Shown here piece after piece: positions 31,368 to 52,242 of a stretch of 64,000 nucleotides of DNA. Below the pieces are notes generated by a model. It ran no database searches. It had not been told where the DNA came from and saw only the letters and a list, made by a program, of their open reading frames with translations. This stretch comes from Escherichia phage Cyrano. The number at the start of each line of letters is the position of its first letter. The first letter of the stretch is position 1. The translations under genes and the position numbers were made by a program. The stretch lies in the sequence record OV696614; one strand, given 5' to 3'.

Positions 31368-31376
31368 GGAGTTCTG

Positions 31377-31934: not shown

Positions 31935-31937
31935 AAC

Positions 31938-31977
31938 AAAAGCCTGCTTTAAAGAGAGTTTGAAGCAGGCTTTCTTT
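31938..31977 (+). terminator. rho-independent terminator
   Basis: Hairpin AAAGCCTGCTT...AAGCAGGCTTT followed by T-tract. Confidence 0.55.
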
Positions 31978-32094
31978 TAAAGAACAGTCGCCTTTCAATC
32001 ATTTCCTGCCTGTATTTAATACTTTTCCGCCTGATAGGTTTAGTCAAAATGTAGCCATCGAAACGCAAATGCAACTAAACAGAAGGAGACTTAC

Positions 32095-32904: not shown

Positions 32905-33087
32905 CGTCCCCCTACTGAAAATAAAGCCCATAGAGAGCTTTATAGTGCTGGGTAAGCCAATCACATATCCAGCACCACAAAAACGCGCCAGAGAGCTTCT
33001 CGTTTGCATTTCTGGCGCGTTTTATTTGATTGCCAGACATAAAATCAAATGCAAAAATAGGTAATCACTTACCTATCGAGAAAGAAG

Positions 33088-33681
33088 ATGATTGCAGCCG
33101 AAAAAATCAAACAGCGAAAGCGCGACAACTCTCTTCGTGACCTCTGGAGAACACCTGACTGGCTGTTTTCTGCCATTCAACGTTATCTTGGAGTGACATT
33201 TGATGTTGACGTTGCCTGCAACAAGGACAATGCGAAGCTGCCTAATTTCATAGGCGTTGAGCGTGATGCTTTGAAATCTGAATGGGGACAGCCAGGTACA
33301 ATTGCCTTCCTCAATCCACCCTACTCCAAAATCTCCCCCTGGATTGATGCGGCTATACGTGAGCAGGCTCGCGGAGTTACAACAGTGATGCTAATTCCTC
33401 AATCCCTCGATACAAAGTGGTATGAGCGTGCAACAGAGTGTGCGAATGAGACGATTATTCTGTCTGGTGGCCGCGTAGCGTTTGTCGAGCCTGACGTCAA
33501 TTTGGGTCAGGTAGAAGTAAACATCAACCCCGGTGGCAGTATGCTCGTTGTTTTTCGAGGATTCTGTCAGGACGCTGGGCACTCTATAAGCAAGATCCCT
33601 TTGGACGTCATGAAAAGTCTGGGAGGGTATGATCCTGCGAATGTGATCAGGAAAAAAAGACCATCAAAGAAGGCTGCTTAG
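33088..33681 (+). CDS. phage-type DNA N6-adenine methyltransferase (Dam family)
   Basis: Catalytic motif NPPYS (AFLNPPYSKISPWI) in a ~200-aa protein with WRTPDWLF N-terminal block, typical of the small phage Dam family. Confidence 0.75.
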   Translation: MIAAEKIKQRKRDNSLRDLWRTPDWLFSAIQRYLGVTFDVDVACNKDNAKLPNFIGVERDALKSEWGQPGTIAFLNPPYSKISPWIDAAIREQARGVTTVMLIPQSLDTKWYERATECANETIILSGGRVAFVEPDVNLGQVEVNINPGGSMLVVFRGFCQDAGHSISKIPLDVMKSLGGYDPANVIRKKRPSKKAA

Positions 33682-33843
33682 TTTGTTCTGGCGTCTGTAA
33701 TTAGCCTGCTTCTGTATATATAAATAACTACATATTAATTATTAATATACGGAAGCAGGCTGTTTTATATCAGAGACTCCCAGACCTGAACACCACTACA
33801 GAATCCACTAGAACCCCTTCCCAGACGCTTTAAAATCGATTTT

Positions 33844-34098
33844 ATGAACCACTTTAAGGAAACCAACATGTCATACCCGACTAATGTCGTTGCGCTCGTA
33901 GAGAGCGATTTTCTGGCCCAGGCTCGTGAAATGATGAAAGATCGTGAGCAGGCTTTCAACTTGTACGAGTGGGCAATTAAGTGCTTGCATCTTGGCGAGC
34001 ATCGCGAACTTGTTGAACAGCTTTTAGGTGAGTTGATCAATGAGGTGTTTGCCTTGAATGTTCAACTACATGGTCGAGAAAATAATCAATCACAATGA
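33844..34098 (+). CDS. hypothetical protein
   Basis: 84-codon ORF; no recognisable motif. Confidence 0.4.
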   Translation: MNHFKETNMSYPTNVVALVESDFLAQAREMMKDREQAFNLYEWAIKCLHLGEHRELVEQLLGELINEVFALNVQLHGRENNQSQ

Positions 34099-34681
34099 TA
34101 GATAAGTACAAACTATTTATAAAGTGAATTGTAAGTGCTAAGATCTGATAGTTTCCAGTCGTAGACTGGAGACTCGACCTGATGGGTGGGGGTAAGCGTC
34201 ACTGGCGTCAGGTTTAAAAAAGCTCACTACCAGCGTAGAACCGGCACCGTTTAGGGGTTGGGGAAGGGGGAACCAAAGTGGGCAGAGACAAGGGTCACTT
34301 TATGATTGTCGAGTCTGGAGTGTTTCGAGAGGTTGAATCCAGTACTCCCCTTCATAAAGTGTGGGAAGATCTCGGTTCTGGGGTGCTGTCATCCATAACT
34401 TCCCAAGCCTAAGCTGGCAGTAGACTTAGGTCATAACTTTTCAGGTTATGAAACGACCAGGTTGGTGAGGAAATTTTGTACTCACCTCCCTGGGAGAGTA
34501 TTACCTGAAAAGACAACCTCTCACTTCGTTCGAGGTGAACTTCACTCACTTCGTTCGTTCAGTTCAGGTTTATAAAAACCTGTTCTGGGAAGTAATTTGT
34601 TTATTTTAATAATTATTAACACGCACGCGTGTGCGCACGCGCGAGGAAAAAATCGGCGCGGCGCTTGATTCAGGAGTTTAT

Positions 34682-35275
34682 ATGACGACGAAGACACCAG
34701 CCCGATCGCAAGCAAAAACTCGCAAAAAAGCCAAAAACAAAAATTCTCCCCGCACCAATCCCACAACGTCTGTCGTAGAGTTCAATCCCCAGCTTAAAAC
34801 CGTGAAAATCTTCAGTGATGGCTCTTGCCTTAAAAATCCGGGTGGCCCGGGCGGTTACGGTATAGTTCTCCAGTATCGTGGTGAGGAACGCGAGTTCTCA
34901 GATGGTTTTCATAGCACCACCAATAACCGCATGGAGATGATGGGGGCACTTATCGGGCTGGAGCGTTTGAAATATCCATGCAACGTTATTTTGCACTCTG
35001 ATAGCCAGTATCTGAAAAACGGCATGACACTGTGGATGAAATGGTGGAAACGCAATGGATGGATGACTTCTGACAAAAAACCGGTAAAGAATGTTGATCT
35101 GTGGAAGCGTCTGGATGAGGCCGCAAGTCGACATAATGTTCGCTGGAAGTGGGTTAAAGGTCACGCCGGGCATCGTGAAAATGAAATATGTGATCGACTC
35201 GCGAAGATCGCAGCTTTTTCAGCAGCAGATATGCCTCACAAGAAAGATATTGGTTTTGTTTATAACAAGTGGTAA
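34682..35275 (+). CDS. rnhA: ribonuclease HI with basic N-terminal extension
   Basis: [17 protein letters not shown]...TNNRMEMMG...[41 protein letters not shown]...[20 protein letters not shown] closely tracks E. coli RNase HI. Start set at ATG 34682 (AGGAG RBS); the listed 34631 GTG lies inside a palindrome. Confidence 0.85.
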
Positions 35276-35420
35276 GTAAGTGTTTACCTATCATTTTAAA
35301 TCATGTATCTTATCAGCGTCAGGATGACAATGTGTCGGTAAGACACAGTTCCAGGATGGAACGAGAAAGGCGGCTGGCAATCGCCAGCCGCAACTCTTTC
35401 TGACACTGGATGGAGTCCAC

Positions 35421-35915
35421 ATGGCACGTCAAACCTATTTCACTTCTGCAACTAAACGTCCTCGTTCACTACGTCAAATTTTGGCCGAATTATTTAGCGG
35501 TCGTGTTCTGTCACGTCTTGATGAACTGGAGACTACCGTTCGGTTGCTGAATGAACGTTTAGATAAGCAAGCGTCAGTTGTTGCGAACGTGGGGGCGATT
35601 GTTACCTCTGGTTCTTCACACCAAGCGAAAAATGCACGGCCTTTAGTGAAGGAGAAAAACAACAAGGACAGTTCGAATGGAAAATTTTCAAAGAAAGAGG
35701 CTGAAACCAATGGCCTACGTTCTCATTATAGTTTCACTGGCGACGGTAGCCGTTCCAGCCGGCCAGAGCCTTTTGATGCCGGGTTCATCCATCACCACAC
35801 CTCCGTCGACGACAATTACCACCACTCCAGTAGAGCGTCCTGTCACTCTGGATGGGATGACGGTGGATGCGATACCTCAAGTTCATCCGGTTACTCAGGA
35901 TCATGCTGTGACTAA
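35421..35915 (+). CDS. hypothetical protein (3' portion of reading frame doubtful)
   Basis: N-terminal ~95 aa look protein-like; the remaining frame is Ser/His/Cys/Gly-rich low-complexity and overlaps a better-looking ORF in another frame. Confidence 0.3.
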   Translation: MARQTYFTSATKRPRSLRQILAELFSGRVLSRLDELETTVRLLNERLDKQASVVANVGAIVTSGSSHQAKNARPLVKEKNNKDSSNGKFSKKEAETNGLRSHYSFTGDGSRSSRPEPFDAGFIHHHTSVDDNYHHSSRASCHSGWDDGGCDTSSSSGYSGSCCD

Positions 35916-35928
35916 GGCGGTTGTATGA
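35710..35928 (+). CDS. small membrane protein with Thr/Pro-rich linker
   Basis: RBS AAGAGG 9 nt upstream of ATG 35710; hydrophobic segment YVLIIVSLATVAV followed by TTPPSTTITTTP. Confidence 0.35.
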   Translation: MAYVLIIVSLATVAVPAGQSLLMPGSSITTPPSTTITTTPVERPVTLDGMTVDAIPQVHPVTQDHAVTKAVV

Positions 35929-36113
35929 ACTGGTTTTCAAATCACTTTGGAAAAATTTGGCTGGCAATTCTTGCCCTCATGGCCGCCGGTTGGGTATCGA
36001 ACATTATAAAACTTGTTTGCTCTGGCGATCTCCAGTTTCAGGCTGGCATGACCTTGGCTCGTGTAGTTGGGATTTTTGTTTTTCCAGTCGGTTCGGTACT
36101 TGGTTATTTCTGA
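35925..36113 (+). CDS. small membrane protein
   Basis: 62 aa, two hydrophobic helices; start overlaps upstream stop (ATGA). Confidence 0.35.
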   Translation: MNWFSNHFGKIWLAILALMAAGWVSNIIKLVCSGDLQFQAGMTLARVVGIFVFPVGSVLGYF

Positions 36114-36206
36114 CGGCTGTTAGTGCATATGCATTGACCATCTTTGCGTAAGCAATTTATGAAACTATAAAACAACTTGTTTTGACAAATAACAAAAGGA
36201 AAACAC

Positions 36207-36632
36207 ATGTTAGGTTTCTTCAAAAAGAAAACTCGTAAAGCAGTTATCGAAGTCAAAAAAATGGAGAACCGTGATGCGGTTGAGGCCACCGTGTGGGGCG
36301 CGTACATGATCTCCTATGCCGACGGCACATGTGACGCAAAAGAAATTGCCATTCTTGAGAAGACAATTGCAGCTCTGCCTGCGTTTTCTCCGTTTGCTGG
36401 TGAAATTGCCCAAATGAGCGCCAATATCCGTGCTCGTTACGAAGCGTCCCCTCGTTCTGCTAATGCACAGGCTATTCGTGAGCTGTCTGATATTGCGGGT
36501 ACTCCAGAGGCGGTCGATGTTCTGTGTCTGTGCCTTGATATTGCCGACCAGGACGGCATTGATGAACCAGAAGAGCAGGCGCTGAAAAAGATCGCCCAGG
36601 CGCTTCAGTTGTCACTGGATGCTTATCTCTAA
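36207..36632 (+). CDS. TerB-like domain protein (putative)
   Basis: Pattern ISYADGTCDAKEIAILEK and LCLCLDIADQDGIDEPEEQALKKIAQAL resembles the two ADG/DG-x-E repeats of TerB-family domains. Confidence 0.4.
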   Translation: MLGFFKKKTRKAVIEVKKMENRDAVEATVWGAYMISYADGTCDAKEIAILEKTIAALPAFSPFAGEIAQMSANIRARYEASPRSANAQAIRELSDIAGTPEAVDVLCLCLDIADQDGIDEPEEQALKKIAQALQLSLDAYL

Positions 36633-36790
36633 TGCTTGAGAGATTCCGGCTTGTGACCGTCATTGCTCTTCTGGTGATAGCGGTGTTGGTGGATTTTACG
36701 GGAAAGATGATGTCTGTCATTTCTGATGGCGTCCTCATTGGTCTGGCGATCTACTTCGCTTATCCGCTAGTCCGTAAAGCAACGTGTTAA
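36632..36790 (+). CDS. small membrane protein (not in supplied ORF track)
   Basis: 52-codon ORF read from the sequence (MLERFRLVTVIALLVIAVLVDF...), start overlapping the TerB-like stop (TAATG); followed by a terminator hairpin. Confidence 0.3.
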   Translation: MLERFRLVTVIALLVIAVLVDFTGKMMSVISDGVLIGLAIYFAYPLVRKATC

Positions 36791-36793
36791 TGA

Positions 36794-36820
36794 CAAGGGC
36801 CAAATGGCCCTTGTGTTTCG
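36794..36820 (+). terminator. rho-independent terminator
   Basis: Hairpin CAAGGGCC-AAAT-GGCCCTTG followed by TGTTT. Confidence 0.55.
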
Positions 36821-36929
36821 TTGACCGAAATAGAGAGTTTGCACCTTTACGTTTAGCTTGCTCCCCTTTTATGCCACATCACAATAAAGCCAATAAGAAA
36901 ACAACTTGTTTAAGCATTAGGAAAAATAC

Positions 36930-37499
36930 ATGTGCAAGAAATGCAAAGCGATAGCTGATGAACAAAACGCCTTATTCGAAGAAATGGATGCTAATGAGCT
37001 GGTCAAAATGTTAGCCATTCTTCGAGGAATAGAAGACGTTTCCATATTTGAGAGAGTGGTTACAGCACTTAATTTTGAGTCCACCTTTGAAGAGCCAACT
37101 CAGGTTGTAGCTTTAGCACATCATTTCGGTGTTCATTATCTTGCTGAAAAAGAGCGCGCTGATAAGTTGCAGGCGACTTTGGATATGGTGAGCGAGACTC
37201 AACGAACTGATGACACTAACAAGAGTGAGGCGATTATTGCCAGCAAAGATCGTGAAATTGCTGGGCTTAAATCCTCTCTAACGATGTTGATGTCTGCGTT
37301 CAATCTTATGTCTTCTCAGGCGGGTTATAAAATGCCATCACTAAACAGCGATGATCCGATGGCCGTTCGTCAGCTTTTGGGAGCAATGGCCGACCAACTC
37401 GACGACACAAAGAGTCGCCTTGAAGACATGATGCGTGAGTTAAGCCATCGACATAACCTCGCAACACAACCACACAAAGTCTTTCAAAGCTCTAATTGA
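36930..37499 (+). CDS. hypothetical protein
   Basis: 189-codon ORF preceded by the AAAACAACTTGTTT upstream motif. Confidence 0.45.
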   Translation: MCKKCKAIADEQNALFEEMDANELVKMLAILRGIEDVSIFERVVTALNFESTFEEPTQVVALAHHFGVHYLAEKERADKLQATLDMVSETQRTDDTNKSEAIIASKDREIAGLKSSLTMLMSAFNLMSSQAGYKMPSLNSDDPMAVRQLLGAMADQLDDTKSRLEDMMRELSHRHNLATQPHKVFQSSN

Positions 37500-37553
37500 T
37501 CTGATATGGCCGCATGATCGGCCATATTGTGTTGATAAAAACAAGGGTGAAAA

Positions 37554-37835
37554 ATGGCATACGGTACAGGGATTTACAACAATAAAGGAATTAACGTTAC
37601 TGGCTTCCTTACACCTATTTTTTTTCTTGATCGATTTACGGCGTCATCAGGCTCTAAGACGTACTCTAATCCGCCACCGGGTAAATCACTACATGCCGTG
37701 TGGTCATTAATGCCTCTTAACAACGACAACTACATCAATTTACCTGTTCCAAATGTTACTATTAATGGAAATACGGTTAGTTGGTCAAATTTATATACGG
37801 GGCTTGGTTCTTACATATACACATACTGGGGATAA
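37554..37835 (+). CDS. hypothetical protein, AT-rich gene
   Basis: 93 aa rich in Asn/Tyr/Gly/Thr; GC content visibly lower than surrounding genes. Confidence 0.4.
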   Translation: MAYGTGIYNNKGINVTGFLTPIFFLDRFTASSGSKTYSNPPPGKSLHAVWSLMPLNNDNYINLPVPNVTINGNTVSWSNLYTGLGSYIYTYWG

Positions 37836-37837
37836 TT

Positions 37838-38452
37838 ATGTTCGGGATGTCAATTACTCAATCAGATGGAAGTTTGTGGATGAGTCCAGAATTTACTCCG
37901 CAAAATCTGATTAATAAAGGGACAATGTCTACATCTAAAGGTTCTGTTTTTCAAACATCAATCCCATCAAACAAATCATGTTTTTTTTTCATAAAAAGCA
38001 GTAATAAGGCGAACATGATGTTTATTCATGAGCATAGTAACGGATACAATGCTCTCAGATTGCATCAGGTAAATGGTAGCCCCGGAACAATAACAGTTTA
38101 TGCTTTTTCTGATATGGTGTTACCACATTCTGGCTATGGCATTGCCATGTATAACAGCGCAGGCGCAATGGTGTATCACGGTGAGATGATGCCCCTTGAT
38201 GCGAAACTTATCACTATTTCTGACCCTCAATTTACAATAGATATGGGGTATCCATGTGCGGTAATGCCTGCTATGGTTGGAGTATATAACTATAGACGAA
38301 CCGATTACGACAGACCTGTCTATGTAACAATGACAGGTGCAACTGGAAACCAAGTATATAACGGTAAATGGTATTCCGGTAATGTCACATGGGATATTAA
38401 GAAGATTTATACAAACAAAATTCTGGTGATAAATACCTCCAAGTATGATTAG
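37838..38452 (+). CDS. hypothetical protein, AT-rich gene
   Basis: Start set at ATG two nt after the upstream stop; about 204 aa, Asn/Tyr/Ser-rich, same low-GC composition. Confidence 0.4.
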   Translation: MFGMSITQSDGSLWMSPEFTPQNLINKGTMSTSKGSVFQTSIPSNKSCFFFIKSSNKANMMFIHEHSNGYNALRLHQVNGSPGTITVYAFSDMVLPHSGYGIAMYNSAGAMVYHGEMMPLDAKLITISDPQFTIDMGYPCAVMPAMVGVYNYRRTDYDRPVYVTMTGATGNQVYNGKWYSGNVTWDIKKIYTNKILVINTSKYD

Positions 38453-38555
38453 CCAATGCCTTTATTTGAAGGATTGCCTGTTTATTTCTATTTAGTACCT
38501 TTTCATTTTTGAAATAATTGCACCATTAAACAAATCACTTCTTAATGGTGCAATT

Positions 38556-41524: not shown

Positions 41525-42076
41525 ATGAGTAACAAAATCGAAAATCCCGTAGTTCTCATTCACAAGCGCGAGAACCACGACTCCTATGCGGTGGCGATCA
41601 CCAATGGGAGTCACGATTTTTACGATGGCCTGCTAATGGCCTCAGTGTCGCCTGATAAGGCAGACAACTCTTTTGCCGTCTTCGCTATGGTTGGTTACTA
41701 CATGGCTGCCGAAATTGAGAAGTTGCGGGCGCAGAGAGACGCATTAGCGGCGGAGAATGTGGCATTGCGATCTAAGGCTGCGGAACTGGCACATGAAGCG
41801 TCAAAAATTTACTCGGCATATAACGCCACTATCACAGAGCCTGACGGGGATTTTATGGACATGCAGACATTGCATGAAATGCAGTGCATAGAAACTCCAG
41901 CCACCGATGCTTTTCTGGCTGAAGTACGTGCGCAGGGCGTGGATATGGCTCGTAACGCGATGATTGATTTTGTTGATGGTGAAGTTGGGCCAAACAAGAA
42001 CGTTCCGGGGCTGATTAGAGGCGCAGAGATATGCGTAAGTATTGCTGAACAGCTTCGTAAAGGAGTCATCCAGTGA
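41525..42076 (+). CDS. hypothetical protein
   Basis: 183-codon ORF with AGAGAAAAACACATG start context. Confidence 0.45.
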   Translation: MSNKIENPVVLIHKRENHDSYAVAITNGSHDFYDGLLMASVSPDKADNSFAVFAMVGYYMAAEIEKLRAQRDALAAENVALRSKAAELAHEASKIYSAYNATITEPDGDFMDMQTLHEMQCIETPATDAFLAEVRAQGVDMARNAMIDFVDGEVGPNKNVPGLIRGAEICVSIAEQLRKGVIQ

Positions 42077-42633
42077 GCAAGATTGACTATCAGGCACTGC
42101 GTGAGATAGCAGAGAAAGCAACGTGTGGTGTGTGGTCGCTCGAGTATGGAGAGGGCCGATTTGATGGTGATGATGCACTAATTCATCGCGAGGCTGCTGG
42201 ATATATTCCCATTTGCAGAATTGAAGGAGCGCATCCTGAAAGCGGTTTCGATGAAGATTTCCAAATGGAACAGCAGGCCAATGCTGAATTCATCGCCGCA
42301 GCCAATCCGGCTACTGTGCTGACGCTGCTGGATGAACGGGAAGGAAACCAGCAATACATCAAACGCCGCGACCAGGAGAACGAGGAGATTGCGTTAACGG
42401 TAGGGAAGTTGCGCGTTGAGCTTGAGGCAGAAAAACAGCGGGCAAAGGATCTGTTTATGGAAAATGCTCGGCTTAAGTCAGGCATAGCTGGTCTGATACA
42501 CCTCGGTATTCGATATGCGGATGTTGAGGTCATGAAAATTGCTGGAGATGCCCAGCTTTCTACTCCATGCACTGACAGCATCATAAACAGCATTGCAGCA
42601 GGCATTTTCACCAAAGAGGGGGCAGCACGATGA
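42073..42633 (+). CDS. ead/Ea22-like family protein (putative)
   Basis: N-terminus ...YQALREIAEKATCGVW resembles the conserved start of Ea22-like prophage proteins; central coiled-coil. Confidence 0.4.
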   Translation: MSKIDYQALREIAEKATCGVWSLEYGEGRFDGDDALIHREAAGYIPICRIEGAHPESGFDEDFQMEQQANAEFIAAANPATVLTLLDEREGNQQYIKRRDQENEEIALTVGKLRVELEAEKQRAKDLFMENARLKSGIAGLIHLGIRYADVEVMKIAGDAQLSTPCTDSIINSIAAGIFTKEGAAR

Positions 42634-42815
42634 GAACACTAGAGGTTCGCGCTGAAGACGTAATCCCTGGTGATGTGCTCATAACATCTAAAGGTCAACA
42701 ATGTGCGGTTAAATCTTTTTGGATGGAAAATGACAAAGTGACTCTGTTCGGTACGGATGGTTCCGAAACTGATTATGACTACGACGAATTGCTTGTTGTT
42801 GAGAGAGCTGCCTAA
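42630..42815 (+). CDS. hypothetical protein
   Basis: 61-codon ORF translationally coupled on both sides. Confidence 0.35.
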   Translation: MRTLEVRAEDVIPGDVLITSKGQQCAVKSFWMENDKVTLFGTDGSETDYDYDELLVVERAA

Positions 42816-43468
42816 TGACCACCGTTAACAATAAGAAATGCTACCCAAGCGAGAAATATCTTAATGAGCTGATCACCAACATTGAGTTTGCTGCAAGGGC
42901 ACCAGTTGAAGTCGTGAGAGCGATTGCAGCAGAGCTACAGAAGCACCGTAAGGCCTATGCCAATACAGCCGCATCTAAGGATGGTTGGATAAGCTGTAGT
43001 GAGCGAATGCCTGTAATCGGCGAGCTAAATTGGAGAACTGGTTTTCCTTTGCTGATTACGTGTGAGATCGGCGTTATACCTGCTTATTACGGCTTTGTGA
43101 GCGTTAATGGTGATAGGCATTATGGCTTTATGGAGAGTCTTAAATACGGAGACGATAACGGCAACCATCCTCAAACTAATGAATATGGTCTGATTAGCAA
43201 TGTCACACACTGGATGCCACTACCAGAACGCCGCAGGAGTCGAACAGTGAATAATGCAGAGTTATTTCAGAAAATATCGGCTCTCGCGACTGAATGCCAC
43301 GCTATAGCATCTGAGCTTGATGTTGGCGATGAACGAACCGAGATGTTCGAAATATACAGTGTGCTGCGCAATCTCTGTCGGCGTGGCTACGCCACTCAAG
43401 TAGGGCGAATGACTAACCCACTACTCTCATCCTGTGATGAGGATGACTCGGATGAGGATGACGAATGA
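42815..43468 (+). CDS. DUF551-like prophage protein (putative)
   Basis: GWISCSERMP motif resembles the conserved tryptophan/ERLP block of DUF551 proteins common in enterobacterial prophages; acidic C-terminus. Confidence 0.4.
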   Translation: MTTVNNKKCYPSEKYLNELITNIEFAARAPVEVVRAIAAELQKHRKAYANTAASKDGWISCSERMPVIGELNWRTGFPLLITCEIGVIPAYYGFVSVNGDRHYGFMESLKYGDDNGNHPQTNEYGLISNVTHWMPLPERRRSRTVNNAELFQKISALATECHAIASELDVGDERTEMFEIYSVLRNLCRRGYATQVGRMTNPLLSSCDEDDSDEDDE

Positions 43469-44130
43469 TGCATAAATCAGTAGCCGGTGAGTTTCAGAAG
43501 GAAGTCGATAATACTACCGTTCTATTGGACGATATTTTAAGCATTCTCGCGCTTCTTGAGGCTGGCGATTGGTCAGAACATTGCACTAAAACGGAGTTAG
43601 GCGGTCGGCTTGAAAGAGAGATTACACGACTTATTGGTGATGCGCAGGAAGCTACAGTCACTAGTTATGAGTTAATCGCTGAAGCCTGGCGTTTGATGGA
43701 TGGACAAGATCCTAAAACCAGCGATTGGCATAGCAAGGCTTCGAAGTATTTAAATTCCGATAGGGTAGAAAAAGTTGATGATGTGAAACCGAAGCCAGTA
43801 GACCACGGTTTCCGCGATAACTGCGAATGCTCTAGTTGCCAGACCACGGCCCGTATTTGTTCCGAATTGACAGATAAGTCCAGCCTAATCTACGAAGTTA
43901 ATGTAGGCGGTAATACATGGGTCGAATGCACAAGAGCTGCATACGTAAGAGCAAAAGACAAGGGTGAATTAACCAGAGTTGTTACCAATCACCCAAATAA
44001 TGAGCTTAAAGATCACCAGATTCGAGAACTGGTGAACGAGTTGAGAGATATTGCGGTTCAGTACCACGGAACGCAGCAATTGCGGGAGAAGATTGCCAGA
44101 GCAGTGAACAACTCAGTCCGTAAAAAATAA
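43465..44130 (+). CDS. hypothetical protein
   Basis: 221-codon ORF, last gene of a coupled plus-strand operon. Confidence 0.45.
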   Translation: MMHKSVAGEFQKEVDNTTVLLDDILSILALLEAGDWSEHCTKTELGGRLEREITRLIGDAQEATVTSYELIAEAWRLMDGQDPKTSDWHSKASKYLNSDRVEKVDDVKPKPVDHGFRDNCECSSCQTTARICSELTDKSSLIYEVNVGGNTWVECTRAAYVRAKDKGELTRVVTNHPNNELKDHQIRELVNELRDIAVQYHGTQQLREKIARAVNNSVRKK

Positions 44131-44571
44131 GCAATAGTACGATAAAGAGGCCCCATGCTCTTGATGGGGCCTGTAGCAACTAGCGTTATGGACGCTGGTT
44201 TACGTACTCAATGATCGCTTTGATAATCGCGAACATCGGCGGCACGATTTTGAACAGTAAGTTAACCATAACAGGCCTCACTTAGTTTTATCGCGCCTAG
44301 CTGCAAATACCTTTGGGCTTGCCTTTGCAGTTGCAATATCTGTAGTCGCCAGATACTTACGGCACGATTTCGAGTTAAGGTAAGGTTTTAGAGTCACCAA
44401 AAACCTGGACTTAAATCTTCTTTGAGAACAACGATGTTTAGTAAATGGTCATTATTACCTGGTATGACCACTCAACGTTTCTTGATGAATCCAGTACATT
44501 CGGTTAATCTTAATTCAGTCGCCAGATACTTATGGCTCAGGAACAGAGCCGCAAACTCTGTTTCCTTTTAA

Positions 44572-44600
44572 AAAGCCCAGCCTAGTCAACTGGGCTTTTT
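44572..44600. terminator. bidirectional terminator-like hairpin
   Basis: AAAAAGCCCAG-CCTAGTCAA-CTGGGCTTTTT: hairpin flanked by an A-tract and a T-tract. Confidence 0.5.
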
Positions 44601-44895
44601 AATGTCTATTTTTAACCCAATGAACCTTCAATACCGCAACATCAGTGTCTTGCGAATTAAGATAGTGTGTATAGGTTATGCATGCAAGTGCATAACTCTG
44701 TGGATAACTCAGGAAGGAAAAAGTAGCTTCCGCGCAATTTAGGCCAGACAAGGCTTTCGCAAAAGTCAACAGAGAGAAAAAATTTGTTAAAAATAACGTT
44801 TGTTGGAATTGTATATATTTATGCCTTTCAATAGTTAGCATCTTATTAACATCTTTTTTAAGAGATAGAGTTCAAAAATATATAGCTTCAACATA

Positions 44896-44915
44896 TACTG
44901 TATGTGTATACAGTA
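44896..44915 (+). promoter_or_regulatory. LexA (SOS) box upstream of the UmuD'-like gene
   Basis: TACTGTATGTGTATACAGTA is a perfect CTGT-N8-ACAG palindrome, 17 nt upstream of the start codon. Confidence 0.7.
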
Positions 44916-44931
44916 TTAAGAGGCGAGTATT

Positions 44932-45321
44932 ATGGGCTTCCCTTCTCCTGCGGCGGATTATGCTGAGAGCCGTATTTCTCTTGATCAGCAGATAATTAGA
45001 CATCCTTCAGCGACCTACTTCATGAGGGCAGCTGATAGTCATCATCGTGAGGGAATATTACAGGGTGCATTGCTGGTGGTCGATTCCTCACTTACCCCGG
45101 TTGATGGTTCTCTGCTTGTATGCGCTCTGGATGGGGAATATCGCGTAAAAAGATACCGGAAGTACCCACGTCAGCATCTGGAGGATTTAAGAACCGGTAA
45201 GAAGGAAGCATTGCCAAAGGATGACGATGGATGCACGGGCAGCAATGCCGTGTTTGGTGTGATCACTCACATTATCAACGACGCAAGAAGTGGCGAGTTT
45301 GATGATTGTCCCGTGATGTAG
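44932..45321 (+). CDS. humD: UmuD'-like protein (HumD-like, S24 LexA-type peptidase fold)
   Basis: Starts MGFPSPAADY..., i.e. at the position where UmuD is cleaved to UmuD'; HPSATYFMRA and VFGVITHII blocks match UmuD; in-frame stop 15 nt upstream; no umuC gene follows. Confidence 0.75.
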   Translation: MGFPSPAADYAESRISLDQQIIRHPSATYFMRAADSHHREGILQGALLVVDSSLTPVDGSLLVCALDGEYRVKRYRKYPRQHLEDLRTGKKEALPKDDDGCTGSNAVFGVITHIINDARSGEFDDCPVM

Positions 45322-45333
45322 GAGAACTGATTA

Positions 45334-45358
45334 GGCGGTGCATTGCACCGCCTTTTTA
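45334..45358 (+). terminator. rho-independent terminator between humD-like gene and apbC
   Basis: Hairpin GGCGGTGCA-T-TGCACCGCC followed by TTTTT. Confidence 0.55.
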
Positions 45359-46459
45359 TCACACTGCGCGGAATGCGATTTCGCCAGGTATTACTTCACC
45401 TTGCCAATACATTTGGGCAGCAACGCGATCTGCGAGGTCACGATAAATAGCCGTAAATTCGCTATCTGGACGACTAATAACGGTTGGTGTTCCGTTATCC
45501 AGATCTTCACGAAGAGAGATATGAAGTGGCATTTGGCCTAACAACTGCGTGTTGTATTTCTCGGCCAGTTTCTGTGCGCCACCGGTGCCAAAAATTGGCT
45601 CGTGATGACCGCAGTTACTGCAAATATGCACACTCATGTTTTCGACGATACCCAGTACCGGCACTTCGACTTTTTCGAACATCACAATGCCTTTCTTCGC
45701 ATCGATCAGCGCGATGTCTTGCGGCGTAGTTACCACAACCGCACCAGTTACAGGAATGTTCTGCGCCAGCGTCAACTGAATATCACCAGTGCCCGGCGGC
45801 ATATCGAGAACGAGATAGTCCAGATCAGGCCACAGTGTTTCCTGCAACATCTGCATCAGCGCCTTGCTGGCCATCGGTCCACGCCACACCATCGCATTGT
45901 CGTCAGTGACCAGATAACCAATTGAATTGGTTGCCAGGCCATGAGACATGATAGGTGCCATGTGAGTACCGTCAGGTGAGGTTGGACGTTGGTTTTCCGC
46001 GCCCAGCATGGTTGGAATTGATGGCCCGTAGATATCGGCATCCAAAATACCAACTTTCGCACCTTCAGCCGCCAGCGCCAGCGCCAGGTTTACCGCCGTG
46101 GAGGATTTACCCACGCCGCCTTTACCGGAGCTGACCGCAATGATGTTCTTCACGCCATTAATGCCTGGTTGGTTTTTGACGCGCTTAAGCGTGGCAATGT
46201 TGTACGACAGCTTCCAGTCAATAGCCTTTGCGCCAGTGATACGGAGCAGATCACCACTACATTGCTCTTTCAGATCTTCAAAAGGCTTATTCCACACGAA
46301 AGGCATGATTAGTTCGACATGCAGTGTGTCATCCATCAACGCAACATGGTGTAACGCTTTAAGCGTAGTCAGGTTGTGTTTCAGGGTTGGGTGCTGAAAA
46401 TTAGCCAGCGTACCGGCTACCATTGCTCTCAGGGCATCCGGCGATTTGGACTCGCTCAT
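45359..46459 (-). CDS. apbC: Fe-S cluster carrier ATPase ApbC/Mrp
   Basis: 366 aa with deviant Walker A SGKGGVGKSSTAVNLA and CSNCGHHEP motif; matches the enterobacterial Mrp protein by recall; divergent from metG as on the E. coli chromosome. Confidence 0.9.
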   Translation of the reverse strand: MSESKSPDALRAMVAGTLANFQHPTLKHNLTTLKALHHVALMDDTLHVELIMPFVWNKPFEDLKEQCSGDLLRITGAKAIDWKLSYNIATLKRVKNQPGINGVKNIIAVSSGKGGVGKSSTAVNLALALAAEGAKVGILDADIYGPSIPTMLGAENQRPTSPDGTHMAPIMSHGLATNSIGYLVTDDNAMVWRGPMASKALMQMLQETLWPDLDYLVLDMPPGTGDIQLTLAQNIPVTGAVVVTTPQDIALIDAKKGIVMFEKVEVPVLGIVENMSVHICSNCGHHEPIFGTGGAQKLAEKYNTQLLGQMPLHISLREDLDNGTPTVISRPDSEFTAIYRDLADRVAAQMYWQGEVIPGEIAFRAV

Positions 46460-46616
46460 CCCGTCTCCTTTATTTTAATTTGCGCAATTGTCGCCTTGTA
46501 GTGTACTCCAGCTACGACATTTAATCATTTATGAGAAATGCTGTTATCACATGGCAGACATAAGGCCATTTTGTTACTATCAAGCCCCTTTTCACTACAA
46601 AGAAGTAATGCCTACT

Positions 46617-48650
46617 ATGACCCAAGTCGCGAAGAAAATTCTGGTGACGTGCGCGCTGCCGTACGCTAACGGCTCAATCCACCTCGGCCATATGCTGGAG
46701 CACATCCAGGCTGATGTCTGGGTTCGTTACCAGCGAATGCGCGGCCACGAGGTTAATTTCATCTGTGCCGACGATGCCCACGGTACGCCGATCATGCTGA
46801 AAGCACAGCAGCTTGGTATCACACCGGAGCAGATGATTGGCGAAATGAGTCAGGAGCATCAGACTGATTTCGCAGGCTTTAACATCAGCTATGACAACTA
46901 TCACTCGACGCACAGCGAAGAGAACCGTCAGTTGTCTGAGCTTATCTATACTCGCCTGAAAGAGAACGGTTTTATTAAAAACCGCACTATCTCTCAGTTG
47001 TACGACCCGGAAAAAGGCATGTTCCTGCCGGATCGTTTTGTGAAAGGCACCTGCCCGAAATGTAAAGCGCCAGATCAATACGGCGATAACTGTGAAGTCT
47101 GCGGCGCAACATATAGCCCGACTGAATTGATCGAGCCGAAATCGGTGGTTTCTGGCGCTACCCCGGTAATGCGTGATTCCGAACACTTCTTCTTTGATCT
47201 GCCTTCTTTCAGCGAAATGTTGCAGGCATGGACCCGCAGCGGCGCGTTGCAGGAGCAGGTGGCAAACAAAATGCAGGAGTGGTTTGAATCTGGCCTGCAA
47301 CAGTGGGATATCTCCCGCGATGCGCCTTACTTCGGTTTTGAAATTCCGGACGCGCCGGGCAAATATTTCTACGTCTGGCTGGACGCGCCGATTGGCTACA
47401 TGGGTTCCTTCAAGAATCTGTGCGACAAGCGCGGCGATACCACCAGCTTCGATGAATACTGGAAGAAAGACTCCACCGCCGAGCTGTACCACTTCATCGG
47501 TAAAGATATTGTTTACTTCCACAGCCTGTTCTGGCCTGCCATGCTGGAAGGCAGCAACTTCCGCAAGCCGACCAACCTGTTTGTTCACGGCTATGTGACG
47601 GTGAACGGCGCGAAGATGTCCAAGTCTCGCGGCACCTTTATTAAAGCCAGCACCTGGCTGAATCATTTTGACGCTGACAGCCTGCGTTACTACTACACTG
47701 CGAAACTCTCTTCGCGCATTGATGATATCGATCTCAACCTGGAGGATTTCGTTCAGCGCGTGAATGCCGATATCGTGAACAAAGTGGTTAACCTGGCCTC
47801 CCGTAATGCAGGCTTTATCAACAAGCGTTTTGACGGCGTGCTGGCAAGCGAACTGGCTGACCCGCAACTGTACAAAACCTTTACTGATGCCGCTGAAGTG
47901 ATTGGCGAAGCATGGGAAAGCCGTGAATTTGGTAAAGCTATCCGTGAAATCATGGCATTGGCTGACCTGGCTAACCGCTATGTCGATGAACAGGCTCCGT
48001 GGGTGGTGGCGAAGCAGGAAGGACGCGATGCCGATCTGCAGGCGATTTGCTCTATGGGCATTAACCTGTTCCGCGTGCTGATGACGTACCTGAAGCCGGT
48101 ACTGCCGAAACTGACTGAACGTGCAGAAGCATTCCTGAATACAGAACTGACCTGGGATGGCATCCAGCAACCGTTGCTGGGCCATAAAGTGAATCCGTTC
48201 AAGGCACTGTATAACCGCATCGATATGAAGCAGGTTGAAGCACTGGTGGAAGCATCCAAAGAAGAAGTGAAAGCCACAGCCGCACCGGTAACTGGCCCAC
48301 TGGCTGACGACCCGATTCAGGAAACTATCACCTTTGACGACTTCGCCAAAGTTGACCTGCGCGTGGCGCTGATTGAAAACGCAGAGTTTGTAGAAGGTTC
48401 TGACAAACTGCTACGCCTGACGCTGGATCTCGGTGGTGAAAAGCGTAATGTCTTCTCAGGCATCCGTTCTGCTTATCCAGACCCACAGGCACTGATTGGT
48501 CGTCACACCATTATGGTGGCTAACCTGGCTCCGCGTAAAATGCGCTTCGGTATCTCCGAAGGCATGGTGATGGCTGCTGGCCCCGGCGGGAAAGATATCT
48601 TCCTGTTAAGCCCGGATGCTGGTGCTAAACCAGGCCACCAGGTTAAGTAA
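46617..48650 (+). CDS. metG: methionyl-tRNA synthetase
   Basis: 677 aa starting [26 protein letters not shown] (HIGH motif), KMSKS motif present, zinc knuckles CPKC...CEVC; near-identical to E. coli MetG by recall. Start set at ATG 46617, not the listed upstream 46488. Confidence 0.95.
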
Positions 48651-48672
48651 TTAAACAACCTCTCTTCGCAAT

Positions 48673-48696
48673 GCCCGGCAACACGCCGGGCATTTT
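48673..48696 (+). terminator. rho-independent terminator after metG
   Basis: Hairpin GCCCGGC-AACAC-GCCGGGC followed by ATTTT. Confidence 0.65.
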
Positions 48697-48811
48697 CATA
48701 TAGACACAATCCCTTCTGATTTACACAGTACCTAAAACAATTTGTTTTCTGCCTTTTGTTGATTGAGATAATAAGCCACATAAGAAAACAAATTGTTTCG
48801 GAGTGGTTGAA

Positions 48812-49111
48812 ATGTTGAACATTACCCAAGCCTACCAGGTGGCATTGATCAGTTCATCTCATACATCAGAGGAAGATGCTCGCCGATTCATGATCGCAAG
48901 CAATGAGCTGGATTGGGTTTCACAAATTGATGGCGGTTGTATTGTCCACGCCGGGTTACAGGATGATGTCTGGAAAGAGGACTTGCGTCGATATGGTATA
49001 TCCGAAGGCGCGATTGCTAACATTCAGAAAGTACTTGATGTAGGCTTTGACTCTGTACATTTTGATTGTGGTGCACCGGTCGTTGAAGGGCTTGAGTGCT
49101 GGAACTGGTAA
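48812..49111 (+). CDS. hypothetical protein
   Basis: ATG with GGAGTGG RBS, preceded by two copies of the AAAACAAnTTGTTT motif. Confidence 0.45.
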   Translation: MLNITQAYQVALISSSHTSEEDARRFMIASNELDWVSQIDGGCIVHAGLQDDVWKEDLRRYGISEGAIANIQKVLDVGFDSVHFDCGAPVVEGLECWNW

Positions 49112-49156
49112 CAGATATTAAAGCATTGGTAGTTTGTTTTTAGGATTATCAAAGAA

Positions 49157-49891
49157 ATGAAAAAGTTGAAAAGTTTAGAAATCCCTGGAACTGGTTATAA
49201 ATTCTTTATGGACAACGCGGAGTGTGCACCTAACGCGTTGGAAAAAATACAAAGTCTTATCAACAGCCTTACTGAAGAAGCGAAAGAACTGAAGAGCGAG
49301 GCGACAAAGGACAATACAGCTAAAATCCAATGCTTAAATCTCGTCTCTTATTGTTTATATCAAGTATCCAAAACACTGATTAAAGGCAATATCTATTACG
49401 ACGATGAAGACACCTCGACACCTGAAGAAAAAGATAGCGATGAAGAACTCTATGAAGATATCTCTACTAGTGCGGGTCACGCTGCCTTCGATGCTATGGG
49501 TGAATCGTCAGGCATCAGATCATTTGTTGAACAGAACAATTCGACAATAATGATTGAGTACTGTGAACAAACAAGCTCCAAGGCCATACATGTTCTTCAC
49601 GATGTTGCTGCAGGGGTTCGCTGTGAGGCTGAAGCGGTCAGAAAAGATGTATTTGGTGCAGACAGTAATACCGTGAAAGCGTTTATCAACAGTGCTCTGC
49701 TAAATTCTTACTCAAACCTTATAGTCAATGCGGCACTATGCGCAAATTCAGGTGAAGAACACATTGTCATAACTGAAACCAAACATGAGCATCAACAGTC
49801 ACCAACCATAGAAGAGGTAACTGCATTGGCTATCAAACAGGCGAGTGAAATTAGTGATGAAATTCTCTCTCTGCTAAACAAAACTAAGTAA
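49157..49891 (+). CDS. hypothetical protein, AT-rich gene
   Basis: 244-codon ORF with low GC and an acidic central segment; no recognisable motif. Confidence 0.45.
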   Translation: MKKLKSLEIPGTGYKFFMDNAECAPNALEKIQSLINSLTEEAKELKSEATKDNTAKIQCLNLVSYCLYQVSKTLIKGNIYYDDEDTSTPEEKDSDEELYEDISTSAGHAAFDAMGESSGIRSFVEQNNSTIMIEYCEQTSSKAIHVLHDVAAGVRCEAEAVRKDVFGADSNTVKAFINSALLNSYSNLIVNAALCANSGEEHIVITETKHEHQQSPTIEEVTALAIKQASEISDEILSLLNKTK

Positions 49892-49994
49892 AACATTGAT
49901 AATGGCGGTCACAATTTGATTCTTTTCTATAAGAATCCGTTGATCGCCACTACTCCCCTTCCATACCCGCAACCACATCCTTAAATATCAATAA

Positions 49995-50790
49995 GTTATA
50001 GTTGTTTATACAATCAAGAAAACAACTGAATAACAGATCAACGAAACGTCAACGCTTTCACCCGATTTGGCCTAAAAAATTGACGTTTTCACACATCACT
50101 GCTTATACCCGTAATTCTACGCAGCAGACAGCACCACAGCGTTCAATTTTCACCACAGACGACTCAACACACTACCAACAAAAACACACGCTCAAAATCG
50201 CTCCCGTTGCGTTACATAACCATATAAACAACTTATTTTCAGGCATAACAAAACAACTAAATAACACATATGCCATTACCCAAAACAACCAACCTCTTTA
50301 TGGCAGGCTACCGAAAAGACCCACCTCTTCTTCCCAGGCTACCGGACAACCAACCTAACTTTCACAGGCAATCCGAAAACATTCATACGCGCGATACCCA
50401 CGACACGCCATTACCCAAACAGCGAAGAAACACCAGAATCACTGAAACCCCAACGAAGCCTGTAACCGCAAGGTTTCTCTCAATCCCAAAAGACACGAAA
50501 CATAACAATCACGGGAAACGCCATTACCCAATACACGAATAACTACAAAAGCCTTTCACACACTCCAGACAAACAACTCAAACACAATAACGAAAGGAAT
50601 CGCCCACCTGCCATTACTCCATACACGGAGAAGAACAATCACCAAAACGACGAGAACACCCCATAGAAGAACCACCGCAAAACTAACGAAACCACATACA
50701 CCGACAGAGAAAACAACACACCCAATTCACCAACAGAAATAGTCGCCGTATAGAACGTTCTGGAAGGAGTGAGCATTAACGCCTATAGAG
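49995..50790. repeat. G-depleted CA-rich non-coding segment with GCCATTACCCAA direct repeats
   Basis: About 800 nt with very few G on the plus strand; GCCATTAC(C/T)CAA(A/T)ACA recurs at about 50271, 50408, 50519 and 50600; CAGGCTACCG recurs at 50303 and 50336. Confidence 0.55.
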
Positions 50791-50939
50791 AGGTTGAAAC
50801 AGATAAAACACGAAGAAAACACAACATGTATAGCGAACAAGACAGGTATGTATAAGTGGGGAGGGAAGGAGGGGTGTCGCCTCCTTTTTCGTATTTATTC
50901 AACTCCTGATTTTATCCCCCGTAACACCCCTACGGTCAG

Positions 50940-51100
50940 CCTTCGGTCCATACAGGGAAAAGGCTGCATCCCGCTACAGAAACGGCTGGGTTGCCTTCGG
51001 GGAACGGCTGGAGGTTTTCAGGGAAACGGTCGAGTTGCCTGTGTGGATTTCGGGAAAAGGCTCGATGCCGGTTCAGGAACGGCGGCGTACCGGTATAGCG
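50940..51100. repeat. array of GGAAACGGC-type direct repeats
   Basis: CAGGGAAAAGGCTGC, CAGAAACGGCTGG, GGGGAACGGCTGG, CAGGGAAACGGTCG, CGGGAAAAGGCTCG and CAGGAACGGCGGCG at roughly 20-25 bp spacing; a similar array lies at 54604-54720. Confidence 0.55.
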
Positions 51101-51425
51101 TGAGGGAGAGTTGCGGCTACCCACCTGTAATGTGCGGGAAGAAGAGAGGCGCTCACGTGCAGGCGAACTTACTTACCGCAGGATTCCCTCTGAATGCCCA
51201 ACTACAGCGTAATTGTGCCAGACAGCCAACGGGCCACAATCGATTTCAGTAGGTTTTCGGGGAGATGATTATTCTGCCCACCAGCCACCTTCGGCCACTA
51301 AATCAGAATAATGTAAAAAGTGTACTCGGTACTGAACCTGAAAACTCACTGCCAAAACCACATTCACCGGAATAAAATCCTTTTTCGCCTTTGCGTTATT
51401 GCGATAATAACACCATCAAGAAAAC

Positions 51426-51776
51426 ATGTTGTTTAAGGATTGCTTTATGTTTGCAAATATCGACATCAACCAAATTAAGAAATTGACTCAAAAAGAGTTT
51501 GACCAGTTTTATGAGTTAGAAGGTTGGTCTTCCACTCTGATTAATTCAAGATGGGTGCTGGAACTGATGACTCGTGATGACGCACCTGCTTTGATGATCA
51601 GCGACCTGGGTGAAGATGCTGACTTTATGGATATGAGCGAATTTTGTGTGGACACATACAACCGCAGCCAGAAGTACTACTTCACATGCGATAGCGAAAA
51701 TGACGTGATTTCTAAGGTCTATCTTCACCTCGTCCAGCATTGGGACGTTCAGGAGTTTCTTGAGGTATTCGCGTAA
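51426..51776 (+). CDS. hypothetical protein (small-gene cassette)
   Basis: 116-codon ORF preceded by CGATAATAACACCATCAAGAAAACATGTTGTTT promoter-like motif. Confidence 0.45.
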   Translation: MLFKDCFMFANIDINQIKKLTQKEFDQFYELEGWSSTLINSRWVLELMTRDDAPALMISDLGEDADFMDMSEFCVDTYNRSQKYYFTCDSENDVISKVYLHLVQHWDVQEFLEVFA

Positions 51777-51930
51777 TCACAACCAAAGCCAGCAATGCTG
51801 GCTTAACTTAATCTGTAGCCGCAGGGAAGAACCTGCATATCGCTCATGCACCTGATCAATATGCTTTGTAGCCGTTTTCTTACTGGTATTATTTACGCCA
51901 TTGAGAAAACAAGTTGTTTACGGAGTTGTG

Positions 51931-52242
51931 ATGAAAAAATCATTGGTTCTTGGTCTGGACAAAGACCAGAAGAGAAAAGAGAAGCCTGCGCTGGTTGCTC
52001 AATTAACTTTGCTGGACATCGTTGCCAATGGAACCTCTATTCGTCTGTTCCGTGAAACAGCGGTGTCTTTCGATAAAAACACCTTTACTCGTTATGTAAT
52101 GAATGTTCGTCGCCAGCGTGGAAAAGGCTGGGTGGCATTTCAAAGAATGTGGCCGGAACATCAGCTCGAACTGGCTTTGATGGAAGTTAACCGCGTGGCC
52201 CAGCAAGAGATTCAGAGAGCATCAGTGATGGCAATAGCCTGA
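51931..52242 (+). CDS. hypothetical protein (small-gene cassette)
   Basis: Start set at ATG 51931 (GGAG RBS) after the AAAACAAGTTGTTT motif; followed by a terminator hairpin at 52277. Confidence 0.45.
   Translation: MKKSLVLGLDKDQKRKEKPALVAQLTLLDIVANGTSIRLFRETAVSFDKNTFTRYVMNVRRQRGKGWVAFQRMWPEHQLELALMEVNRVAQQEIQRASVMAIA

Follow-up and report, generated by a model that had tools for sequence, protein, structure and literature searches.

An apbC-metG gene pair that is probably host-derived cargo fixed in the pSLy3 lineage of phage-plasmids

This study concerns a divergent pair of housekeeping genes, apbC (mrp) and metG, in a 64,000-nucleotide (nt) stretch of Escherichia phage Cyrano (sequence record OV696614), hereafter the window, whose positions are used throughout. 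The best explanation of the apbC-spacer-metG block (45359-48650), and one that we consider probable, is that it is host-derived cargo fixed in the pSLy3 lineage of phage-plasmids, with a history of capture, constraint, gene conversion and likely benefit. Annotations of these plasmids already list both block genes, and the block is not a new kind of system. What appears to be undescribed is that this cargo defines the lineage, is old, does not come from E. coli, is strongly constrained and has had its metG recurrently overwritten by the host. In the searchable literature we found no published study of metG or methionyl-tRNA synthetase (MetRS) in SSU5, pHCM2, pSLy3, pECOH89 or phage-plasmids, and phage-plasmid surveys are silent on metG. 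Phage-plasmids carrying apbC have been placed in the pSLy3 group, with a passing remark on apbC (PMC12429562).

Results

The apbC-metG block lies on a pSLy3-type phage-plasmid

The backbone of the window (30000-38500) matched 174 PLSDB plasmid records at identities of at least 95% (95-99%). Around the block, pSLy3 itself (NZ_CP015915.1), the namesake plasmid, aligned at 96-98%, and 87-96% of the surrounding 24 kb was covered by block-bearing plasmid or phage records; Salmonella phage SSU5 covered 30% of the same 24 kb at 80% identity. On these comparisons we assign the window to the pSLy3 group of the SSU5 phage-plasmid supergroup, both defined in Pfeifer et al. 2021 (PMC7969092). Judging from the full-length relatives, which are circular plasmids of ~110 kb and deposited phages, phage structural and lysis genes and plasmid replication and partition genes would reside on one replicon. 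The best matches to the block were circular, non-mobilizable E. coli plasmids of ~107-114 kb with 95-99.3% identity, not chromosomes. The block was also present in three phage deposits, namely CMS-2020a (twice) and PhiR41_1; as the latter was deposited with MG1655 as its listed host, an active phage carries the block.

The two genes diverge from a common intergenic control region. apbC occupies 45359-46459 on the minus strand (366 amino acids, aa), metG occupies 46617-48650 on the plus strand (677 aa), and the spacer between them (46460-46616), which we aligned with those of nine chromosomal species, measures 157 bp vs 131 bp in the mrp/metG pair of E. coli K-12 (b2113/b2114). A first-pass annotation of this DNA had likened the pair to the enterobacterial chromosomal arrangement, and full-length profile matches, conserved motifs and the spacer bear this out. 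ApbC matched the NCBIfam equivalog model NF008669 from end to end (759.3 bits, cut-off 348) and kept the deviant Walker A motif GKGGVGKS at residue 112 and the CxxC motif, as CSNC, at residue 280. It was 94% identical to the K-12 protein, carried a 3-codon N-terminal deletion found in none of the chromosomal orthologues compared, and was the same protein, WP_000004356.1, in 5/5 RefSeq plasmids fetched. MetRS matched the equivalog model NF001100 (1020.9 bits, cut-off 587; residues 4-677 against positions 3-676 of 676), and its C-terminal tRNA-binding/dimerisation domain matched TIGR00399 (163 bits, cut-off 117). The HIGH motif, as HLGH (residues 10-30), KMSKS at 333 and the zinc knuckle CPKC...CEVC (140-165) were all in place.

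At 98.7% identity to K-12 MetRS, the encoded enzyme is predicted to be active in aminoacylation. The two proteins differ by nine conservative substitutions (S/T, V/I, R/K, N/D, A/S, A/T, V/T), none of them in HIGH, KMSKS or the zinc knuckle, so nothing points to inhibitor resistance or specialisation. Models of the mupirocin-type synthetases MupA and MupB (NCBIfam NF000257/NF000258) returned only background on MetRS, 33 bits vs a cut-off of 1900. We found no tRNA gene in the 64-kb window, hence no tRNA-Met.

The spacer is composite. Its metG-proximal ~45 nt, with the extended -10 element TGTTACTAT, the leader and the ribosome-binding site, is close to Escherichia, and its centre is of the longer Citrobacter/Salmonella type, including a plasmid segment of ~25 nt that is missing in Escherichia. 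The best blastn matches of the spacer were in the Citrobacter freundii complex, at 77-79%. The earlier description of a native intergenic promoter region thus stands for the metG-proximal part and not for the centre of the spacer. The spacer as a whole would act as a promoter region by its sequence features.

The block is present in essentially every pSLy3-type element

Searches of PLSDB returned 207 matches to the block, 201 at coverage of at least 80% and 187 at identity of at least 95%. Among 5,426 complete RefSeq E. coli genomes, the block was found at 223 plasmid places (216 records at identity of at least 95%), that is, in about 4% of the genomes or roughly 1 in 25. The backbone was found in the same genomes in 207 records at identity of at least 90%, with only 2 chromosomal places. 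The similar record counts of block and backbone indicate that essentially every pSLy3-type element has the block. Escherichia or Shigella accounted for 196/207 PLSDB records, and E. albertii and some Shigella also carry the block; five Klebsiella and five Salmonella records are taken at face value from the match counts. Related backbones of ~76% identity occurred in 310 Klebsiella and 88 Enterobacter records. Phage SSU5 is without the block, and its equivalent position holds genes for an antirepressor, Eaa, a ppGpp hydrolase/synthetase-like protein and ydfZ. The neighbours of the block (Ea22/humD on the left, 48803-49896 on the right) varied among plasmids, and the block did not.

The chromosomal metG-type copy was counted at 5,423-5,430 chromosomal places in the 5,426 genomes, all genomes matching. 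By this pooled count the hosts keep their own chromosomal metG, which bears on the question, raised by the first-pass annotation, of whether the host retains a copy and argues against a loss of the host gene. Chromosome-type apbC-metG, 84-91% identical to the block, was seen on the 'plasmid' records NZ_CP141089.1 (4.94 Mb), NZ_CP114132.1 (439 kb), CP088875.1 (393 kb) and CP075030.1 (302 kb); these four are either chromosomes under a wrong label or very large replicons that contain chromosomal segments, and because of them housekeeping genes are over-counted as plasmid-borne.

An aminoacyl-tRNA synthetase on a mobile element had been called unusual. This is true of phage records, where MetRS was found in 25/50,697, several of them dubious fragments; in pSLy3-type elements, a common lineage, the trait is fixed and already annotated. 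Phage records such as OR850913.1, OR848326.1, OR847278.1 and PQ520222.1 are fragments of 2.5-8 kb whose metG matches at host-species level, and metG of Salmonella 'phage S.Kent 1-2-1' is 84.7% identical to the block at the nucleotide level, equal to the Salmonella chromosome. Such short fragments are likely to be host DNA in prophage or transducing-particle data sets.

The block is an old capture and not recent host DNA

Overall the block was 88.8% identical to K-12, and this identity was strongly uneven. Between plasmid and K-12, synonymous divergence (dS) was 0.27 for metG (94.3% nt identity) and 1.29 for apbC (82.8%). The corresponding values were 0.25-0.40 and 0.36-0.67 among Escherichia species, and 0.74 and 1.18 between K-12 and Citrobacter. 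In sliding windows, metG was Escherichia-like throughout; the ends of apbC were 66-80% identical to everything, and its middle was 86-91% identical to Escherichia. In neighbour-joining trees, plasmid apbC formed a long-branched clade outside the Escherichia sampled, and plasmid metG fell inside Escherichia.

A donor search was made in GTDB, where a scan of 100,044 species genomes yielded 338 ApbC loci, of which the best 80 were compared. Among these 80, identity peaked at 84% for the apbC ends and at 79% for the spacer. C. werkmanii was closest over the apbC ends (84%), the best matches belonged to the Citrobacter freundii complex, and the closest ApbC protein in the scan was 95% identical. 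A search for ApbC protein homologues was uninformative about the donor, for the database, clustered at 90%, merges the plasmid, E. coli, Salmonella and Citrobacter proteins.

With apbC at a dS of 1.29 and 83% identity and with a Citrobacter/Salmonella-type spacer, the block is not recent DNA of the present host. On these sequence data we read it as an old capture. The first-pass annotation had proposed host gene capture among other origins. Capture stood, but recent derivation from the current host did not, as the identities to E. coli (83% for apbC, 94% for metG, 89% overall) fit an old divergent homologue.

Both genes show strong protein-level constraint

Variation within the lineage was examined in nine plasmid alleles, from the window, pEP91B-1, PhiR41_1, p7.2.1, pEcoFMU073332c, an E. 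albertii plasmid, pMRY16-002_2, pSLy3 and pSCMY1. Both genes were intact in all nine, with no stop codons or frameshifts. apbC had 8 nucleotide alleles with 57 segregating sites, all of them synonymous, so that one protein was encoded in 9/9 plasmids. metG had 225 segregating sites and 11 variable residues, with a ratio of nonsynonymous to synonymous polymorphism (pN/pS) of 0.013. Synonymous diversity within the lineage was 0.08-0.18 at a pN/pS of 0-0.013. On the long branch to the chromosomes, the ratio of nonsynonymous to synonymous divergence (dN/dS) was 0.02-0.03 (0.027 for apbC and 0.024 for metG against K-12), the same as between chromosomal orthologue pairs. This pattern argues that both genes have been under strong purifying selection. 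Retention of the block in essentially all members without decay, while its neighbours turn over, points to selection as well.

metG of sister plasmids has been overwritten from host chromosomes

The three parts of the block differed in their spread. Among the nine alleles, identity was 98-100% in the spacer and 96.8-100% in apbC, and it fell to 94.2% (5.8% difference) in metG, where the spread among plasmid alleles equals the distance between plasmid and chromosome and the alleles are mosaic. At 104 sites the plasmid majority differs from K-12. Sites in the K-12 state were clustered in p7.2.1 (46 sites, nearly contiguous), pRM15115, pMRY16 and pFMU (permutation p 0.001-0.02). In p7.2.1 a 1.1-kb tract, equivalent to 47086-48185 of the window, was 99.7% identical to chromosomal metG; 1,584/5,639 records matched this tract at 99% or more, and only about 219 of all the records were plasmids. 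These tracts indicate, at the level of sequence comparison, that metG of sister plasmids has been converted from the chromosome. The metG of the window itself showed no significant converted tract, and its six K-12-state sites were few and scattered (p = 0.26), which places this allele close to the unconverted plasmid type.

Transfer in the reverse direction was not found: for the plasmid-type 3' part of metG (48000-48650), the best chromosomal identity was 93.2% in a sample of 60 matches taken across the ranking, and 166 records reached at least 95% vs 219 plasmid places. Being ~94% identical to host metG, the plasmid gene recombines with it; apbC and the spacer are too divergent and therefore stay element-specific.

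The block is a self-contained unit that ends at the two stop codons

Homology to every chromosome compared was confined to the stretch from one stop codon (45358-45363) to the other (48650-48659). Beside the block, neither the neighbouring chromosomal genes yehE/yehF nor the chromosomal terminators were present. GC content was ~0.50 in the block vs 0.40-0.46 in the flanks.

Hairpins on both sides had been predicted by the first-pass annotation, and both were recovered. The left one (45333-45353, plus strand; AGGCGGTGCATTGCACCGCCT followed by TTTTT) has a GC-rich stem of 9 bp and folds at -18.6 kcal/mol, by terminator scan and folding. P1 homology stops to its left (~45320), and chromosomal homology begins to its right. 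Its T-tract on the plus strand orients it as the intrinsic terminator of the upstream humD (44932-45321); read in the sense of apbC it has no U-tract. The right one, the metG terminator hairpin (48670-48694, the feature extending to 48699, plus strand), consists of AATGCCCGGC-AACAC-GCCGGGCATT followed by UUUUCAU. It was missed by the consensus terminator scanner and confirmed by folding (-19.1 kcal/mol). Its sequence is unrelated to that of the E. coli metG terminator and gave no blast match in any fetched chromosome. A terminator lies 3' of metG in every chromosome compared, with a species-specific sequence.

The palindromic motif AAACAAnTTGTTT occurred 9 times in the window vs 0.3 expected, on both flanks of the block and nowhere inside it (14216, 36170, 36899, 41439, 48735, 48786, 51907, 52811 and 54046; also 51421), in agreement with the element-specific upstream motif reported earlier. 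It appears in two contexts, as AAGAAAACAAnTTGTTT 10-25 nt ahead of start codons and as part of a conserved promoter-like unit, AAACAATTTGTTTTCTGCCTTTTnTTGATTTGTGAAAAT, at 41439, 48735 and 52811. It is probably an operator or promoter element of a regulator encoded by the element. The first element transcription unit right of the block (48735-48798, plus strand) has two AAACAAnTTGTTT copies around the promoter-like TTGATTGAGATAAT and lies directly upstream of an open reading frame starting at 48803/48813; the promoter-like arrangement recurs at 41439 and 52811. By its motifs, this unit would mark the return to regulation of the element type. An own promoter region and a terminator after metG give the block the layout of an autonomous 'moron', for which the sequence evidence consists of the conserved metG extended -10 and leader, the hairpins at both ends and the bracketing element motif units at 41439 and 48735. 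Expression of the block in lysogens is predicted from this layout.

Flanking regions and divergent copies

The phage-like genes noted earlier on both flanks were confirmed. P1-like humD and Ea22-like genes lie on the left and DUF5983 and hypothetical genes on the right, and the flank genes include those for RNase HI, a phage N6-adenine methyltransferase, a DUF4942 protein, Ea22-like proteins and a HumD homologue. The segment ~41900-45320, which holds the Ea22-like genes and humD (44932-45321), was 87-91% identical to P1/P7/SJ46 (humD, EaA and upf genes) and 92-95% identical to lambdoid ea22/ead regions. These identities indicate that cargo has passed between phage-plasmid families of the SSU5 and P1 types.

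pSLy3 lacks the Ea22/humD region, and its junction falls at the window equivalent of 45345, at a GCACC(G/A)CC microhomology within the hairpin. Positions 2880-3010 of pSLy3, left of the block, resemble what we take to be the first ~125 nt of IS1. This junction would be a secondary, insertion sequence-associated deletion and not the original boundary of the block, and pSLy3 was accordingly set aside as a guide to the left boundary. In plasmid p2 of CP059946.1, single-nucleotide insertions are present at position 785 of apbC and position 773 of metG, and no coding sequence is listed in PLSDB; the insertions are probably long-read indel errors.

To the right, a region of ~1.5 kb (49900-51440) has no annotated coding sequence in relatives. 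Its part 50000-50780 is strongly A+C-rich on the plus strand (GC skew -0.30, AT skew +0.35) with 3-4 copies of GCCATTACYCMAWAC, and GGRAAAMGGCTSG repeats lie ~22 bp apart at 50955-51065, with a second pair at 54656/54678. A TRF search of 49800-51500 and an Rfam search of 44000-52000 gave no match. The region 49900-51440 could be iteron- or centromere-like, or RNA-coding.

Discussion

A model for the block

We propose that an apbC-spacer-metG unit, trimmed to its two stop codons, would have been captured before the pSLy3 radiation from an enterobacterium other than E. coli, a donor with a spacer of the Citrobacter/Salmonella type and an apbC branching outside the Escherichia sampled. The unit would have been placed in the variable cargo region of the element, between two element transcription units. 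In a second step, metG and part of apbC would have been overwritten by Escherichia alleles through homologous recombination. The element would thereby supply a second, canonical MetRS and ApbC as extra or backup copies. Carriers would be merodiploid in the plasmid state, in which the genes are presumably expressed from their own sigma-70 promoters, and gene dosage would rise with element replication upon induction. The role of the pair might be to raise or insure the charging of Met-tRNA(Met/fMet) and the delivery of iron-sulphur clusters, so that translation initiation in the host is kept competent for the element. Dosage of metG matters in this respect, as lowered transcription of wild-type metG raises persistence (PMC11004401). 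A second copy should accordingly shift carriers towards active translation, to the advantage of a temperate element dependent on a metabolically active host. apbC may have come along as the gene sharing the divergent promoter region, although its strict conservation suggests that it is selected too.

Several points weigh against this model. The insertions in CP059946.1 could mark a rare decayed copy. The discordance between metG and apbC could reflect an unsampled deep donor related to Escherichia, with unequal rates in the two genes. Part of the purifying signal may be inherited, for the long branch includes time spent in the donor, and most apbC polymorphism falls in the central 45800-46200, where the protein is invariant between plasmid and K-12. 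metG could in part stay intact through conversion from a chromosomal copy under selection, without any selection on the plasmid copy. Sister SSU5 groups do without the block. The window has no tRNA-Met, and the relative pECOH89 has tRNA-Thr and tRNA-Asn only. Finally, extra or backup Met-tRNA charging and iron-sulphur delivery is a benefit that we infer as the likeliest one.

Relation to known systems

The closest counterpart of the block is the chromosomal mrp(apbC)-metG pair of Enterobacteriaceae (b2113/b2114), with which it shares the genes, their divergence, a homologous spacer, and the extended -10, leader and ribosome-binding site of metG, at protein identities of 94% and 98.7%. It differs in lying on a phage-plasmid of ~110 kb, in homology that ends at the stop codons, in its terminators, in the 3-codon deletion of ApbC, in a spacer of Citrobacter/Salmonella type and in an apbC as far from E. 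coli as that of Citrobacter.

Huge and jumbo phages also carry aminoacyl-tRNA synthetase genes, which are thought to aid or redirect translation during infection (Al-Shayeb et al. 2020, PMC7162821). Phage records with MetRS include Microcystis phage MaAM05, uncultured phages of ~630 kb, Acinetobacter phage MD-2021a and Pseudomonas phage Y5. The block resembles these cases as a host-related synthetase in a phage genome. In contrast to them, it resides on a temperate phage-plasmid of 110 kb, has a single synthetase nearly identical to that of the host together with its co-captured neighbour apbC, and undergoes ongoing gene conversion with the host. It also has no cognate tRNA-Met in the window, and the charging of phage-borne tRNAs proposed for huge phages therefore does not fit here.

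Plasmids with the isoleucyl-tRNA synthetases MupA or MupB likewise carry a second synthetase while the host gene is kept; these are strongly divergent resistant enzymes, whereas the block MetRS is canonical at 98.7%. Complete in itself, with a promoter region and a terminator of its own and a place between element operons in a variable cargo region, the block is like phage morons, lysogenic-conversion cassettes and auxiliary metabolic genes. Host-like enzymes such as those of nrdAB, thyA, dfrA, rnhA and dnaE are typical of SSU5-type elements, and the block is host-like housekeeping cargo in the same way; unlike them it consists of an essential translation gene and an iron-sulphur carrier rather than nucleotide metabolism genes, and it is specific to pSLy3-type elements.

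Alternative explanations

A more far-reaching idea is that the phage-plasmid uses its own MetRS, with ApbC, to control host physiology and to keep carriers out of metG-dependent dormancy or persistence. A higher capacity for Met-tRNA charging would do so and would keep translation initiation ready for plasmid maintenance and lytic growth. We regard this idea as doubtful. If it were true, some 4% of E. coli strains would harbour a mobile factor that modifies antibiotic persistence, and through the shared homology an essential chromosomal gene would have in the element a permanent partner for recombination.

The block might instead be a functionless passenger that is intact owing to its young age and to gene conversion from the host copy. 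Chromosome-to-plasmid conversion is demonstrated for metG, apbC polymorphism concentrates where the protein is universally invariant, and sister phage-plasmid groups lack the block. However, the apbC ends and the spacer are unconverted, at 75-84% identity to anything chromosomal, and ApbC is nevertheless identical in 9/9 alleles with no stop codon or frameshift. The block is kept in essentially every pSLy3-type element while Ea22, humD and 48803-49896 vary, and synonymous diversity of 0.08-0.18 at a pN/pS of 0-0.013 is hard to obtain under neutrality. A passenger thus seems unlikely to us.

Selection could also act on the DNA homology itself, a 2-kb match to an essential host gene, for recombination, reversible cointegration or allele exchange. 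The recurrent conversion tracts from the chromosome speak for this, but plasmid-type 3' metG is not seen in chromosomes (best 93.2% in the sampled matches; 166 records at 95% or more against 219 plasmid places), integrated backbones are almost absent (2 places), and the protein-level constraint on unconverted apbC would go unexplained. We consider it very improbable.

Extra aminoacyl-tRNA synthetase copies on mobile elements have inhibitor resistance as their classic role. A specialised or resistant auxiliary synthetase, comparable to plasmid MupA/MupB or to self-resistance synthetase copies and shielding host or element from a toxin or antibiotic that targets MetRS, would match this role and the retention of the element copy alongside the host gene. 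Its 98.7% identity to K-12 MetRS, with nine conservative changes outside HIGH, KMSKS and the zinc knuckle, and the free swapping of tracts with the host, which is unexpected for a distinct variant, leave this explanation only a slim chance.

Recent capture of apbC-metG from the current E. coli host, or a transient pick-up by cointegration or transduction, can point to metG segments of 650-700 bp that are 94-96% identical to E. coli and to the 99.7% identical tracts of sister plasmids. Yet these near-identical tracts are internal patches and not the whole block. Identity to K-12 is only 82.8% in apbC, the spacer is of a non-Escherichia type, every E. coli chromosome stays below 95% over the block (216 records at 95% or more vs 223 plasmid places), and more than 200 plasmids, drawn from many hosts and countries, share the same junctions. 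The divergence of apbC and the spacer and the shared junctions effectively refute it.

Finally, the odd gene content and the step in GC content from 0.40-0.46 to ~0.50 once made an assembly chimera, or element DNA placed around the chromosomal metG locus by integration, worth raising, as the first-pass annotation did, but both fall with the same block and junctions recurring in more than 200 independent circular plasmids (201 in PLSDB at coverage of at least 80% and ~220 in RefSeq, circular at ~107-114 kb, besides the 3 phage records), the absence of yehE and yehF, and a backbone at only 2 chromosomal places in 5,426 genomes; replication across independent assemblies refutes the chimera.

Implications

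Because of one phage-plasmid lineage, the carriers, about 1 in 25 complete E. coli genomes, are merodiploid for two genes, one for an essential aminoacyl-tRNA synthetase and one for an iron-sulphur carrier. Work on metG in persistence and tolerance and on MetRS inhibitors should reckon with strains that may have a second wild-type copy. At metG/apbC, a paralogue 83-96% identical to the chromosomal genes stands in the way of core-genome typing, of recombination inference and of short-read assembly. The block also offers a natural case of an essential host gene on a temperate element that is repeatedly overwritten from the chromosome, and it may be used to gauge, in natural populations, recombination between plasmid and chromosome.

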